Virus record (IMG/VR): IMGVR_UViG_3300028920_000023
Source of the DNA: a virus
Lineage: Duplodnaviria; Caudoviricetes
Strand: one strand, 5' to 3'
Length of the DNA stretch: 64,000 bases
Shown: in pieces, positions 6,488 to 10,608 of the stretch
Numbering within the stretch: the first letter of the stretch is position 1
How the letters are laid out: each line of letters starts with the position of its first letter
Program-made: the position numbers and the translations under genes
Notes under the pieces: generated by a model
Seen by the model: the letters and a program-made list of their open reading frames with translations, nothing else
What the model was told of the DNA's origin: nothing
Databases searched by the model: none

Positions 6488-7375
6488 TTAGTAGCGCTTA
6501 TGTTGATTCAGCGGATCAAGTTTACCATTACGAGAAACAGATATACGCTTTCTCAACTTAGGCAACGTACCATCTTCCTGCATCTCGGAATAAATGCGAC
6601 TGAACGATGGCACTTTCTTCAACTCATCAATACCATGTTGACGCAACCTAACAATCAGAGTAGCAATATCCATAAGATTACCAGTAGAGACCATACCTCT
6701 TACCAGGGCTACATTGGCCGCAACCCTAACCTCATCAGAGATACCTTCCCAAGTATTATGACACTTATCACAATACCCATTAGTCAAGATCGTACCGGCA
6801 TGGAACGGACATTCCTCTACGTACGTCATAGGGAACTGATTCACTGTATAAACACGAACCTCTTCCCCATCAACAATACATACCGGGCTGGTCTCCCGAC
6901 GACGGGCAATACGCAAATGCTCCAACGTACGCTCAAGATCAATAGTCTCGTTATCTGATTTATAGATGACGAAAGGACGGCCATTAGAACGCTTCAATAA
7001 CTCATCTATGATCTCGGAACTTGATTCAGGACCGTATTTCTCTAATAATTCCTTATCACTCATCCTCCCTACAGGCTTAAGAGCTTCTAATAACGAGGAA
7101 TTATCTTCGAGAATAATATTCTCTTTCTTGACTCGCCCCTTAAGAACCTGCCAACCAGCCGAAAATCTAGCTGGTTTTACCTTAGTGCTCTTAAAAGCCT
7201 CCTTGGCGTCTGCTTCTCTTGTCGTATCTGCTTCTAGAAGAGAAATCGCATCCTCATCTTCCTTGTCTACACCAAGCTCAGACAAAGCTTGATATACAGC
7301 CTCTTCTGTGATTTTCATCACTTCAGCTGCTTTGCTTACTCTACATTCTAGGGGAGATACAGGAGGATTAGCCAT
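6488..7375 (-). CDS. hypothetical protein with a CxxH/CxxC finger
   Basis: 295 aa; TAAGGAG RBS; CPFH-x8-YCDKC. Confidence 0.75.
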   Translation of the reverse strand: MANPPVSPLECRVSKAAEVMKITEEAVYQALSELGVDKEDEDAISLLEADTTREADAKEAFKSTKVKPARFSAGWQVLKGRVKKENIILEDNSSLLEALKPVGRMSDKELLEKYGPESSSEIIDELLKRSNGRPFVIYKSDNETIDLERTLEHLRIARRRETSPVCIVDGEEVRVYTVNQFPMTYVEECPFHAGTILTNGYCDKCHNTWEGISDEVRVAANVALVRGMVSTGNLMDIATLIVRLRQHGIDELKKVPSFSRIYSEMQEDGTLPKLRKRISVSRNGKLDPLNQHKRY

Positions 7376-7482
7376 GGTTATGGCTCCTTATTCTGTGCAC
7401 CTTGATTTTCGGTGCTGTGTTGTCAGGTTACTTGGGCCACACTCGTGGTACCGTTCGCCAGACTTCATTCTTATTTACTTTT

Positions 7483-7621
7483 GAGGAAGGGGATTAGCGC
7501 ATGGACGTGTTGTTTATTCACAATTTGCGATTGTGCGCTCCACCATGGAGCATTTTACGCTTACGCGTAAACTAGGAATCGAACCTAGCAGACTGTAACG
7601 TCGTGCAGTTCCCCAATCCTC
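7483..7621 (-). ncRNA. Y-RNA-like RNA A with circularly permuted tRNA module
   Basis: Minus strand order: terminal stem; T arm CTAGG-TTCGATT-CCTAG; 7-bp TTTACGC-GTAA-GCGTAAA; AT; D arm GCTC-CATGGTG-GAGC; G; CACAA-TCGCAAA-TTGTG; return strand ACGTC-CA-TGCGC-TAA-TCCCC. Confidence 0.75.
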
Positions 7622-8651
7622 AAATAGCAAACTTACTAGCACGGTTCCAAGGAGCATCTTTAGCCCATTTAGCTTTCGTAAACATCGAAGCATAAACAAT
7701 AGACCTAGATTTCCTCAAAACCTGACCATTAAACTGATCATTCTCCAAAGACACAATATCATAACCATTCATTGTGTCCTCAACCTTATCGGAAAACGGG
7801 TCATCTAGCAGTTCCCGGACGATTTCACGAACACGCTTATCCTCTTCTGCCTCTGCCCGTTCAATCTCACGCTCAAGATCTTCCAATGATCCGAGACCGC
7901 GAGATTTCAGAGGAACACGCAAACGAGAAGTCGGGGTACGGCTATTCTTACGAGCAACCTCGATAGACAATGACCCATAACACTCACGAACTAAAGGCCT
8001 CCAAAGCTCTGACCAATATCTAGGATTAGGAGCACGCTCCACGCCAGTAACAGAACCATTGATCAGAATAATCGCCCCAATCTGTTTAGGAACTATCTCA
8101 AACTCCGCAACAAACTGATCCAACTCATCCCTAAATGCACTAAGAAAATTATCCAAATTACCAGTCGCACTAACCTCAAAAGAAGCATTAAAACGAGAAA
8201 TATCATCCCAAAGCTTATAATAAGAACGCTCACCCCGCTTGTTAAACGCAGACTCACGCAAAGAAAAAGGAAGAACCAACATATCATGCTGGCCCTCGGG
8301 GATATAGCCACCTTGCGATTGCTGTATACACATCGCATCATCAAAAGACTTATCGCCCTTACCAACCAAACCAGCCCTGCTCATAGCATGATCCTGGGCA
8401 GCATGTTTCGTAACATACCCAGCATGACACGGAATAAGCAGGACCTTCTCCGGATCAGGATTACGAAACTTCATCTCACCATAATTGTGAGTACTTAAGC
8501 TCGTCTCAACGTCCTTATCCTGAGGAGAAATAATATTCAGATCATACAACTCCTTATCTTTACAAATAAGAGGAATAATCTGCATAACACCAACAGACTG
8601 CAGATTGCCAACCTTCGTACCACGCAGAACCTCACTGATAGTATAATCCAT
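7620..8651 (-). CDS. ARPP-2-like protein (partner of the vWA protein)
   Basis: Real start is probably MDYTISE at 8651, directly after the vWA stop; Q-x-VGVMQIIPL, AAQDHAM and C(I)QQSQGG motifs match my recollection of ARPP-type domains; needs an HMM check. Confidence 0.6.
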   Translation of the reverse strand: MDYTISEVLRGTKVGNLQSVGVMQIIPLICKDKELYDLNIISPQDKDVETSLSTHNYGEMKFRNPDPEKVLLIPCHAGYVTKHAAQDHAMSRAGLVGKGDKSFDDAMCIQQSQGGYIPEGQHDMLVLPFSLRESAFNKRGERSYYKLWDDISRFNASFEVSATGNLDNFLSAFRDELDQFVAEFEIVPKQIGAIILINGSVTGVERAPNPRYWSELWRPLVRECYGSLSIEVARKNSRTPTSRLRVPLKSRGLGSLEDLEREIERAEAEEDKRVREIVRELLDDPFSDKVEDTMNGYDIVSLENDQFNGQVLRKSRSIVYASMFTKAKWAKDAPWNRASKFAI

Positions 8652-8652
8652 G

Positions 8653-10197
8653 CTAGATATCCTCCAACTGAGGCAAAGCGATCCTCGCCAGACCCTCGAT
8701 AGCCTCTTCCAAATTCGTAACAAGAAGAGACTTCAAAACCCGCATGCCAATCCCCTCAGGTTTAGACAACGGAACAGCCTCAACCTCCGGAGCCAAAGTC
8801 CTGAGCGCACCAGCCTTCTCCGCAGCCACCACAGGGGAGACCTGAACCACCGGAGTATTAATCCCCATCTCACGAACAATCTTCAGAACTTCAGAAAATC
8901 TACCCGCAGGAGCATTCTCGTAACCATCAGACAACACATAAACAATCTCAGGATCATACTTCAAAAGAGACACCAAAGCAGACGCCAAAGAGGTCGGACC
9001 ACAGGGAAAAACCAAACCGCCCCTAGGGGCACCACCACAATGGACCACATCAGCAGAAGAACTAGCCTCTTTTAACATATCCCTTACAGCCAAAGAAACA
9101 GCAATCGGACGATTCTTCTGAGTATCATCACCCATCATGGACCTAGAACAATCCACAATAATACCTATGTGACCATGTTTGGAGAACATCGCCTCAGCAG
9201 ATTTCTTTGCTTTCTGCTTTAATGCTGCACGGATCTCGTCTGTCATCCCCATCTCATAAGCGTAGATATAAAGCCTTACGGCATCCAGAGAATGAGGATT
9301 AAACTCGACTTTCACACCAACTTTCTTTGTAGCCTTCTGGACAAGGGCCTTCTGTCGTTTGGTCATCCCACTCTTTGCTAACTCATAAACCACATCCTTG
9401 CCGACGCTAGTATGGAACCTACTTCTTAAGTAAAAGAGTTGCTCTTTGGGCAATCCTTTCCCTTCGGCAAGGTTCTTCTTGGCTTTGATATACTTCTTCA
9501 TAGGATCGGATTTGATCCTGTTCTCAAATCCGAGTATGAAGGCCAGAGGCTCCGTGACGTCGGCGTCTGTATATGGCTCTACGTATTTGGACAGGGTTGT
9601 TTTTTGTTTTTCTGTCCATGCTTTCTTGACGCCTTTTCCGTGTTTCGCTTCCAGGCATTTATACACGGATTTAAAGACGTTCTGGCCCCAGGCATGTTGT
9701 AGGCATTGTCTTATTTTGTAGCGGTATTTGACGCTCCAGTGTTTGAGATTTTTGTTACCTAATAGGCAATTTAGAATGAGTTTCCTAGTTCTAGAATTGT
9801 TGATTCTGTTTTTTCTGAATTCCAGGAACGCTTTGATCATTCTCTGCGGTTCTACGGAACCTGCGAGATGTCTTATTAGTTTGCCTTCTTGCGCCGGAGT
9901 TAGGATTGCTTCCCCACTTCTTGGATTATCAAGGAAGAAACCCATTCCGAGCTGTTTCGAGTAGTCGTTTATCCCAGGCAAGCAGAGACACAGACCGTAA
10001 ATCCCACGGTCGATTGAGAAGATGTCTTTGTGCAGTTGTAATATTGCTTGTTTTTGTTCTTCTCTTGTATTGTAATGTGTTGCTCTGTCCGTTGCTGCAG
10101 CTACGGTATCAAGGAAACTACCCAGGAGCCCTGGCAGTTTTCGTTTCTGCGCTGTACTTAGATGGTCTATTTTGGATATCGCTAGTTCTGTGGTCAT
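8653..10197 (-). CDS. divergent TROVE/Ro60-like helical protein with C-terminal vWA domain
   Basis: MIDAS DCSRS plus VYVLSDGYEN in the C-terminal third; basic alpha-helical N-terminal region (GINDYSKQ, RINNSRTR); probable start MTTEL at 10197 (ORF open to 10281). The vWA call is firm; Ro60 kinship is inferred. Confidence 0.7.
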   Translation of the reverse strand: MTTELAISKIDHLSTAQKRKLPGLLGSFLDTVAAATDRATHYNTREEQKQAILQLHKDIFSIDRGIYGLCLCLPGINDYSKQLGMGFFLDNPRSGEAILTPAQEGKLIRHLAGSVEPQRMIKAFLEFRKNRINNSRTRKLILNCLLGNKNLKHWSVKYRYKIRQCLQHAWGQNVFKSVYKCLEAKHGKGVKKAWTEKQKTTLSKYVEPYTDADVTEPLAFILGFENRIKSDPMKKYIKAKKNLAEGKGLPKEQLFYLRSRFHTSVGKDVVYELAKSGMTKRQKALVQKATKKVGVKVEFNPHSLDAVRLYIYAYEMGMTDEIRAALKQKAKKSAEAMFSKHGHIGIIVDCSRSMMGDDTQKNRPIAVSLAVRDMLKEASSSADVVHCGGAPRGGLVFPCGPTSLASALVSLLKYDPEIVYVLSDGYENAPAGRFSEVLKIVREMGINTPVVQVSPVVAAEKAGALRTLAPEVEAVPLSKPEGIGMRVLKSLLVTNLEEAIEGLARIALPQLEDI

Positions 10198-10291
10198 GAT
10201 CTCGCCCTTTCCAGTGATGAGGCTGTTTATCAGCTTCGTCCTGGTAGTTAAAGTAGATGCGGACCTGATTGGGGTCCGCATCTGATTTAGT

Positions 10292-10404
10292 GGGGGATTT
10301 GCGCAGGGTCAGTTTTCGTCAGAGAGGGAATTGAACCCTCAACTTCGCTTTATAAGAGCGATGTCCTATCCATTGGACTATCTGTAATGACGTGCAGTTC
10401 CCCC
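10292..10404 (-). ncRNA. Y-RNA-like RNA B containing a tRNA cloverleaf (anticodon UAU) with a broken acceptor stem
   Basis: D arm GTCC-AATGGATA-GGAC; anticodon arm TCGCT-CTTATAA-AGCGA; T arm GAGGG-TTCAATT-CCCTC; only 4 acceptor pairs and no CCA; enclosed by GGGGGAACTGCACGTCA / TGACCCTGCGCAAATCCCCC. Confidence 0.8.
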
Positions 10405-10431: not shown

Positions 10432-10547
10432 TTTGGGGTTGGCGCAAAGTCGTGTTTAAGTGGAGCAGGACTTGAACCTGCGACTTATCGGTTATCAGCC
10501 GATCGCTCTACCATTGAGCTATCCTGTAACGACGTGCAGTCCCCAAA
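10432..10547 (-). ncRNA. Y-RNA-like RNA C containing a tRNA-Ile(GAU)-like cloverleaf with a broken acceptor stem
   Basis: D arm GCTC-AATGGTA-GAGC; anticodon arm ATCGG-CTGATAA-CCGAT; T arm GCAGG-TTCAAGT-CCTGC; 3 acceptor pairs and no CCA; enclosed by TTTGGGGACTGCACGTCGT / ACGACTTTGCGCCAACCCCAAA. Confidence 0.8.
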
Positions 10548-10579: not shown

Positions 10580-10608
10580 ATTGTATCACATCCAAACCGC
10601 TTTGTCAA
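10580..10608 (-). promoter_or_regulatory. sigma70-type promoter for the ncRNA/vWA operon
   Basis: TTGACA-17 nt-TACAAT with extended -10 TG, about 30 nt upstream of RNA C. Confidence 0.85.

Follow-up and report, generated by a model that had tools for sequence, protein, structure and literature searches.

The 64,000-nucleotide (nt) stretch of DNA from a huge uncultured phage analysed here (the window; all coordinates are positions in it), taken from IMG/VR record IMGVR_UViG_3300028920_000023, carries directly behind an ARPP-1 family gene an element, RNA A (7621..7483, minus strand, 139 nt), in which the arms of a tRNA appear in a rotated order, and the question raised by this locus is what kind of RNA it encodes. 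Every gene around RNA A lies on the minus strand, and RNA A starts at G7621, the middle base of the TGA that ends the ARPP-1 gene (7622-7620). This agrees with a prediction made from the sequence alone (hereafter, the original prediction), which placed the start of the element at this stop codon and described it as a complete circularly permuted tRNA opened at the variable loop. Our analysis makes it likely that RNA A is a genuine, structured non-coding RNA belonging to the Y RNA/YrlA kind but with a different break point, that is, a complete rotated tRNA look-alike on a stem that we call the handle. YrlA RNAs are tRNA-mimicking Y RNAs bound by bacterial and mycobacteriophage Ro60/Rsr (PMC4201824; bioRxiv 10.1101/312249); since YrlA is opened at the anticodon stem and RNA A in the variable region, we regard RNA A as YrlA-like but broken at another point.

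RNA A has a minimum free energy (MFE) of -51.5 kcal/mol, compared with -33.7 ± 3.4 kcal/mol for 200 dinucleotide shuffles (RNAfold; z -5.16), none of which folded as well. The MFE fold contains all the hairpins listed from the sequence in the original prediction, and every predicted element lies at its predicted place in the fold and the sequence. A terminal stem made of four short helices encloses four hairpins, and the parts in 5' to 3' order are as follows (RNAs B and C are two sister RNAs, and R1 is a covariance model, both described below).

7598..7621, minus strand: 5' strand of the terminal (Y-like, "handle") stem, including ACUGCACG; seen in the fold, and the motif is also in RNAs B and C
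7589..7597, minus strand: 5' joiner UACAGUCUG, 9 nt, including the family-wide Y-N-CAG junction motif; unpaired in the fold
7572..7588, minus strand: T arm CUAGG / UUCGAUU / CCUAG, 5 base pairs (bp); seen in the fold and aligned by R1, and the helix covaries
7554..7571, minus strand: closed acceptor-like hairpin UUUACGC / GUAA / GCGUAAA, 7 Watson-Crick pairs; seen in the fold, with covariation
7552..7553, minus strand: linker AU at tRNA positions 8 and 9 (UA or UG in relatives)
7537..7551, minus strand: D arm GCUC / CAUGGUG / GAGC with GG in the loop; seen in the fold and by R1
7536, minus strand: single G at the place of tRNA position 26; a 1-nt spacer in all nine RNAs of this layout
7519..7535, minus strand: anticodon-like arm CACAA / UCGCAAA / UUGUG, 5 bp with a 7-nt loop; seen in the fold, by ARAGORN and by R1
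7509..7518, minus strand: 3' joiner AAUAAACAAC, 10 nt, at the variable-region position; seen in the fold, and its AAAC is common to RNAs B and C
7483..7508, minus strand: 3' strand of the handle, including the common UGCGC..AAUCCCC; pairs with 7621-7598 in the fold

The acceptor-like hairpin abuts the T arm directly, and the spacers between the T, acceptor, D, and anticodon arms are 0, 2, and 1 nt, as in a tRNA. Given the arm order T, acceptor, D, and anticodon-like, the handle leaves the tRNA body in the variable region, the place of the extra arm of class II tRNAs. The attachment at the variable loop that had been predicted is thus borne out: the anticodon-like arm follows the D arm after one base, and joiners of 9-10 nt lie between it and the T arm. 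The junction of RNA A itself is a long imperfect helix.

In its native order, RNA A gave no match at 7483-7621 with ARAGORN, or with Rfam either at the gathering threshold or at E values up to 10. De-permuted constructs were then assembled from the 5' acceptor strand, the AU linker, the D arm, the single G, the anticodon arm, four to five native joiner bases, the T arm, and the 3' acceptor strand. ARAGORN at default settings called all eight of them a tRNA-Cys(GCA) of 75 nt, the "anticodon" GCA being that of the loop UCGCAAA. RNA A nevertheless departs from a textbook tRNA at several core positions: the linker at positions 8/9 is AU rather than UA or UG, the first base of the D loop (position 14) is C rather than A, position 33 is C rather than U, and the base before the T stem (position 48) is G rather than a pyrimidine. 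U8, A14, U33, and pyrimidine 48 are thus replaced by A, C, C, and G, and they are mostly kept in the eight relatives described next. In addition, the D arm can be extended to 6 bp in the MFE fold.

To find relatives, windows starting at T-loop motifs were treated as circles and run in ARAGORN, and the candidates were then parsed. At least four other phage lineages have the same arrangement: T arm, closed 7-bp acceptor, 2 nt, D arm, 1 nt, and an arm of 5 bp closed by a 7-nt loop. The homologues with the same permutation that the original prediction had proposed to look for therefore do occur in other phages, as eight RNAs with the same arm order (our numbers for related loci begin with L).

L003: 1518-1598
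L005: 1495-1575
L059: 1505-1586
L060: 955-1036
L062: four RNAs, at 529, 838, 1047, and 1414

All eight lie inside handle stems with the Y-N-CAG junction, upstream of a gene pair encoding a Ro60-like protein and ARPP-1, and the junction motif is also found 5' of the tRNA-like part in related loci. L003, L005, L059, and L060 have an extra small hairpin at the place of the class II variable arm. Bacterial matches to model R1 were rejected as instances of the layout, as they were either tandem-tRNA artefacts or T / acceptor / D modules with no anticodon arm following. R1 had been built from the eight relatives (alignment A3) with the window left out, and it still finds RNA A end to end (36.3 bits, E value 2.2e-7 in the 64-kb window, model positions 1-86), with every pair standard.

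Pairs were counted over nine RNAs (RNA A and the eight relatives) in our own parse and over a model-fitted alignment, because MAFFT shifts the acceptor loop of RNA A by one column. In our parse, the four helices of the cloverleaf gave the following counts.

Acceptor helix: 63 of 63 cells paired, compensatory changes at 7 of 7 positions
Anticodon-like helix: 42 of 45 cells paired, compensatory changes at 5 of 5 positions
T helix: 45 of 45 cells paired, compensatory changes at 3 of 5 positions
D helix: 32 of 36 cells paired, compensatory changes at 2 of 4 positions

When partners were shuffled, the observed pairing was reached in 0 of 2000 trials for the acceptor, anticodon-like, and T helices (0 to 25 of 2000 over the helices). 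In the model-fitted alignment A6 (14 rows), 97.8% of cells are paired, a share that falls to 66% when partners are shuffled and to 38-47% when they are slid; changes on both sides are seen in 18 of the 20 pairs. We take this count as corroboration only, because A6 leans towards the model. The permuted cloverleaf thus stands on the ARAGORN calls for the de-permuted RNA, the recurrence of its order in phages with compensatory changes in four helices, and its recovery by a model trained without the window. The anticodon-like loops behave differently from the rest. Between the near-identical phages L003 (1325-1765) and L005 (1305-1764), 11 of 21 loop positions differ in three orthologous RNAs, compared with 32 of 353 positions in the RNA arrays outside the loops (Fisher p 2e-6), which suggests, as far as sequence comparison can, that the anticodon-like loop is a functional, fast-evolving part.

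Tandem tRNAs can mimic this layout: the other match of R1 in the window combines two RNAs, with the T arm taken from RNA C and the D and anticodon arms from RNA B, a dimeric-tRNA artefact that is to be expected, and R1 also scores many bacterial tRNA arrays. RNA A might on this account be a chance fold, or the functionless, decayed remnant of two tandem tRNA genes. We regard this as extremely improbable, given that the acceptor strands pair perfectly across only 4 nt, that z is -5.2, that the layout is conserved with compensatory changes in other phages, and that a specific handle is shared.

The closest known counterpart of RNA A is YrlA (RF02553), with which it shares the order of T arm, closed acceptor hairpin, and D arm inside a stem formed by the RNA ends, the position on the same strand as and beside a gene for a protein with a predicted Ro60 fold, and the presence of several sister RNAs per locus. 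In YrlA, which lacks an anticodon loop, the stem of the 5' and 3' ends is the equivalent of the anticodon stem, and the T arm comes after a V region (PMC4201824; bioRxiv 10.1101/312249). RNA A, by contrast, keeps a full anticodon-like arm, and its stem leaves from the variable region. It also lacks the GNCGAA(N)G Ro-binding motif of YrlA (there is no CGAA in the 139 nt) and has instead a handle motif, ACUGCACG...UGCGC.AAU, and its partner protein, which Pfam TROVE does not see, goes with ARPP-1 instead of RtcB/RtcA. The contrast drawn in the original prediction, that YrlA also closes the acceptor but attaches through the anticodon stem, is correct according to both sources. Its claim of a different topology is supported: the break point does differ and the anticodon arm is kept. 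The novelty was overstated, since YrlA had already been likened to a circularly permuted tRNA with a closed acceptor stem (Wang et al. 2018; bioRxiv 10.1101/312249).

The same elements can be read in another way, in which RNA A is a YrlA with an inserted hairpin: the inner terminal stem GACGU/ACGUC would be the anticodon stem, and the 5-bp/7-nt hairpin would have been inserted after position 26. The T / closed acceptor / D order is indeed that of YrlA (PMC4201824), and many relatives have YrlA-like order, with a hairpin, about 5 nt, and then T, acceptor, and D with no hairpin after D (L002, L009, L036, L048, and L016). The Rfam YrlA model also matches two L062 RNAs and one L048 RNA at 31-37 bits, where the gathering threshold is 69 bits. 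Yet one nucleotide after the D arm, a 5-bp stem, and a 7-nt loop are found in nine of the nine RNAs, which is the geometry of an anticodon arm; six of the nine have U33 and a purine at 37 in the loop; ARAGORN sees a cloverleaf only with this hairpin as the anticodon arm; and joiners of 9 and 10 nt are too long for a continuous anticodon stem. The handle, moreover, is not tied to the anticodon position, because the same handle joins the acceptor end in RNAs B and C. We therefore hold the inserted-hairpin reading to be improbable. A YrlA-like four-way junction with UACAG of the 5' joiner paired to UUGUG was also considered and rejected: CACAA/UUGUG is the stronger pairing, and the alternative lacks conservation in L003, L005, and L059, for which reasons the opening in the variable region is accepted.

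The handle links RNA A to two further RNAs at the other end of its operon. A 17-nt stem motif, ACUGCACGNNNUUACAG, has three copies in the window, one each in RNAs A, B, and C and all on the minus strand, where 0.01 would be expected. The three RNAs have a common 5' flank, ACUGCACG-NNN-UUACAG, and a common 3' flank, AAAC...UGCGC.AAUCCCC. RNAs B and C are tRNA-Ile-like and lie upstream of the Ro60-like gene.

10292..10404, minus strand: sister RNA B, with a tRNA-Ile(UAU)-like body in normal, non-permuted order on the same handle
10432..10547, minus strand: sister RNA C, likewise with a tRNA-like body in non-permuted order on this handle, anticodon GAU
10580..10608, minus strand: sigma-70-like promoter, 11 of 12 matches plus a TG extension, the only strong one of the operon

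In RNAs B and C, the handle runs into the acceptor end of a normally ordered tRNA body, whereas in RNA A it carries the rotated body. Over the family, tRNA bodies are joined to the handle in three connectivities: through the acceptor end, through position 26/27 or the anticodon side, and through the variable region. It appears that the tRNA shape, anticodon arm included, has been selected rather than a particular connectivity. The Y RNA Yrn1 of Deinococcus radiodurans likewise has tRNA-like features and possibly a 5-bp anticodon-like arm (PMC4201824). It differs from RNA A in its normally ordered arms, 6-nt loop, and doubtful D arm; because of its normal order, it resembles RNAs B and C and not A. 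An exact scan of IMG/VR for the handle motif gave no matches, and blastn of the operon against GenBank phages found only ordinary tRNAs, which matched RNA C.

The original prediction had the element processed out of the mRNA. RNA A is neither directly preceded by a promoter-like site nor followed by a terminator, from which we infer that it is transcribed from the operon promoter and excised from the mRNA. The same facts, and the start of the element in a stop codon, would also suit a cis-acting mRNA element between ARPP-1 and the next gene that never acts as a free RNA but stabilises the mRNA or serves as a signal for processing (by RNase P, Z, or III) or punctuation. When a longer sequence is folded, the terminal helix gains about 15 bp that reach into the coding region, a possible RNase III site that would fit such an element. 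However, RNA A shares its handle with RNAs B and C, which lie in non-coding DNA behind a promoter of their own; the relatives with its layout belong to arrays made up of RNAs only, located upstream of the Ro60-like gene; and most related operons have no element at all after ARPP-1. A purely cis-acting role is accordingly unlikely in our judgement, and a free RNA with a rotated tRNA-like body remains the preferred reading.

The acceptor strands of RNA A are linked by GUAA alone, so that there is no CCA in the loop and no free acceptor end; the original prediction that RNA A cannot be aminoacylated would hold only as long as the GUAA loop is closed. In Cyanidioschyzon merolae, in other algae, and in one archaeon, permuted tRNA genes, as summarised in 10.1101/312249, also have the 3' half before the 5' half and an acceptor end closed by a short linker; according to the work cited there (Soma et al. 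2007; Chan et al. 2011), functional tRNAs arise from their precursors by closure into a circle at a bulge-helix-bulge and opening of the acceptor end. RNA A differs from them in its long protein-handle stem, its GNRA cap without CCA, and its non-canonical core positions. One could still suppose a permuted tRNA gene that matures to a working or chargeable tRNA-Cys(GCA), nicked or re-joined, with the acceptor hairpin opened by RNase P or Z and CCA added. The 7-bp acceptor stem, the NCCA encoded at the start of the acceptor loop in several relatives (L062, L009), and the processing of permuted genes to tRNAs in algae and one archaeon (bioRxiv 10.1101/312249) speak for it. Its opponents are the tight GUAA tetraloop without CCA, the departure of positions 8, 14, 33, and 48 from the tRNA invariants, and the long handle that would stay attached in the variable region; nor is a bacterial or phage equivalent of the splicing endonuclease route known (bioRxiv 10.1101/312249). 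We consider such maturation very unlikely, and opening of the acceptor hairpin is unlikely in RNA A. For the family as a whole it could occur, given the precedent of M. smegmatis YrlA (7-bp acceptor), which is cut by RNase P and gains CCA (PMC4201824), and the NCCA in the L062 and L009 loops.

At L062:529-1499 and L009:1986-2065, the acceptor-closing loops start with ACCA or GCCA, equal to an encoded discriminator plus CCA; judging from these letters, opening of the hairpin may expose a CCA end in some members of the family.

The protein partners of these RNAs are encoded between RNA A and RNA B. The Ro60-like gene lies upstream of the ARPP-1 gene, one base apart from it, and about 1 kb upstream of RNA A on the same strand.

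7620..8651, minus strand: ARPP-1 family gene, 343 amino acids from the ATG at 8651 (Pfam PF20208, E value 4.8e-33)
8653..10281, minus strand: Ro60-like gene, a helical domain plus vWA, open reading frame of 542 amino acids (structure model, Foldseek)

The 542-amino-acid protein had no match in Pfam (TROVE included), in PHROG, or by sequence in the PDB. An AlphaFold model of it, computed with 12 homologues, reaches a mean pLDDT of 81. Residues 1-33 are disordered in the model, for which reason the true start of the gene is probably near 10197. In a Foldseek search of the PDB with this model, the best 13 matches were all Ro60/Rsr (E values 5.6e-6 to 1.2e-3, full-length alignments), and these included human and Xenopus Ro60, Deinococcus Rsr, and the protein of Thermus phage phiLo. 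ARPP is an uncharacterised predicted enzyme that has been proposed to act on ribose moieties (PMC9503650). ARPP-1 has a conserved Cys and a conserved Gln. The modelled complex of the Ro-like protein with ARPP-1 had an ipSAE of 0.68, compared with 0.00 for the best control; 58 of 80 solved complexes attained this mark, as did 2 of 110 mismatched pairs. Runs shared at least 97% of contacts, and the partner pLDDT was at least 85. The modelled contacts lie on the vWA/MIDAS (metal ion-dependent adhesion site) face of the Ro-like protein, at MIDAS residues 379-381 and 454-459, and in ARPP-1 at residues 16-21 and 182-188, with invariant glutamates, and at 242-270. The model thus supports, rather than demonstrates, binding of ARPP-1 to the vWA/MIDAS face.

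A phage Ro60-fold protein beside tRNA-like genes is not without parallel. In Felix O1-type phages, the Ro60-like protein Bas63 gp130 was reported to counter the ppl defence system, and the neighbouring "tRNA" genes were suggested to be Y RNAs (bioRxiv 10.1101/2024.10.10.617714). The present locus is similar in placing a phage Ro60-fold protein beside tRNA-like genes that are possibly Y RNAs; it is different in that its Ro-like protein has no tblastn similarity to the Felix O1-type protein and its partner gene is ARPP-1. In the cited literature and in Rfam, we did not find a break point that keeps the anticodon arm, three connectivities on one handle, or a link between a Ro60-like protein and ARPP-1.

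A number of observations weigh against reading RNA A as a tRNA-like RNA of the Y RNA/YrlA kind. The Rfam YrlA model misses RNA A at E values up to 10 (6800-8200) and gives no match window-wide at the gathering threshold. The tRNA-like tertiary fold is less certain because U8, A14, U33, and pyrimidine 48 are lost and the D arm zips to 6 bp. Alignment A6 leans towards the structure and includes five rows of other layouts. The Ro60 assignment is at the fold level only, with TM-scores of 0.28-0.49, no TROVE match, and no PDB sequence match. In 14 other related loci, the spacer after ARPP-1 holds no such RNA, L011 being the sole exception. There, the ARPP-1 is the nearest relative (61% identity), and an identical handle start followed by the 5' strand of a T arm (ACAGG UUC...) comes directly after the ARPP-1 stop; this homologue is known only to the T arm, where the 1.3-kb contig, number 147792 of run SRR26074205, ends. 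A search through the downstream 295-amino-acid gene to extend L011 found no relative above 52% identity, and the contexts that it did find were without the operon. Lastly, no RNA run contains the RNA A stretch: the matching sequencing runs are all DNA, with three marine-sediment runs that contain the stretch and may be where it came from, and one wetland run contains only 7300-7424.

If RNA A is a rotated tRNA look-alike of the Y RNA/YrlA kind, as we favour, a mechanism can be proposed. By analogy with Ro/Y RNA particles, RNA A would probably dock on the Ro60-like protein through its handle, in which an AC / C-N-AA internal loop is conserved, and this protein, as the model predicts, would hold ARPP-1 on its vWA/MIDAS face. 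The tRNA elbow and the anticodon-like loop could then be presented to a tRNA-recognising factor, which would be recruited or occupied, and the closed acceptor end would keep RNA A out of aminoacylation and translation. Only as a tentative and rather doubtful suggestion do we add that the Ro60-like/ARPP-1 particle might display sealed, non-chargeable tRNA look-alikes as decoys or baits for enzymes that attack or mark anticodon loops. The targets would be anticodon nucleases or other tRNA-directed defence or counter-defence factors, and the variable-region break point of RNA A would serve to keep the anticodon arm intact on display. Were this so, Ro/Y RNA particles would gain a role in the conflict between phage and host over tRNAs. 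The tRNA-mimicking Y RNAs known so far have the YrlA layout only, which is without an anticodon loop. Here, one handle bears three circular orders, of which that of RNA A keeps four arms and seals the acceptor end, so that the family offers a natural set of variants for asking what reads the tRNA mimic; it also connects these RNAs with ARPP-1 and with a Ro60-like protein that Pfam misses.

The Ro60-like/ARPP-1 pair with one to five handle-borne tRNA-like RNAs before it was found on contigs from IMG/VR, metagenomes, and Logan/ENA, and the pair is also present in bacterial genomes (Pirellulaceae, Planctomycetota, Myxococcota, Actinomycetota, Embleya/Yinghuangia, Bacteroidota, and others). A search of IMG/VR with the single Ro-like protein gave no relatives, which emerged only with an alignment as the query. 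Among GenBank phages, the pair was found in a single uncultured phage of 462 kb (LR756500), which has no RNA of the RNA A layout; tblastn with the Ro-like protein found no similarity in any cultured phage, its sole match being this uncultured phage. At eight bacterial loci (L065, L067, L069, L072, L074, L091, L114, and L118), from genomes of Pirellulaceae, Myxococcota, and Pseudohongiella, a long array of tRNA or tRNA-like genes closely precedes the Ro60-like gene. Handle-borne RNAs with no tRNA-like body and only a short hairpin occur at L012:1744-2100, L013:1930-2010, and L001:2175-2420, which recalls YrlB. The phage contig L131 has two T / closed-acceptor / D modules (7001-7075 and 7162-7240) directly downstream of a DUF7873 gene, with no Ro60-like gene in the locus fetched.

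Two further conserved or structured stretches adjoin the elements described above. On the minus strand, 10257-10281 forms a perfect 9-bp hairpin (AUGCGGACC / GGUCCGCAU) over the first ATG of the 542-amino-acid open reading frame, and it may end or punctuate RNA B. Next to RNA A, 7376-7482 (minus strand) is a conserved leader 5' of the 295-amino-acid gene. Probably structured, it can be aligned with the leaders that precede homologues of this gene in L001, L130, and L131, the invariant blocks being GCGAACGG, AAGUAAC, CCGAAAA, and AAGGAGG.

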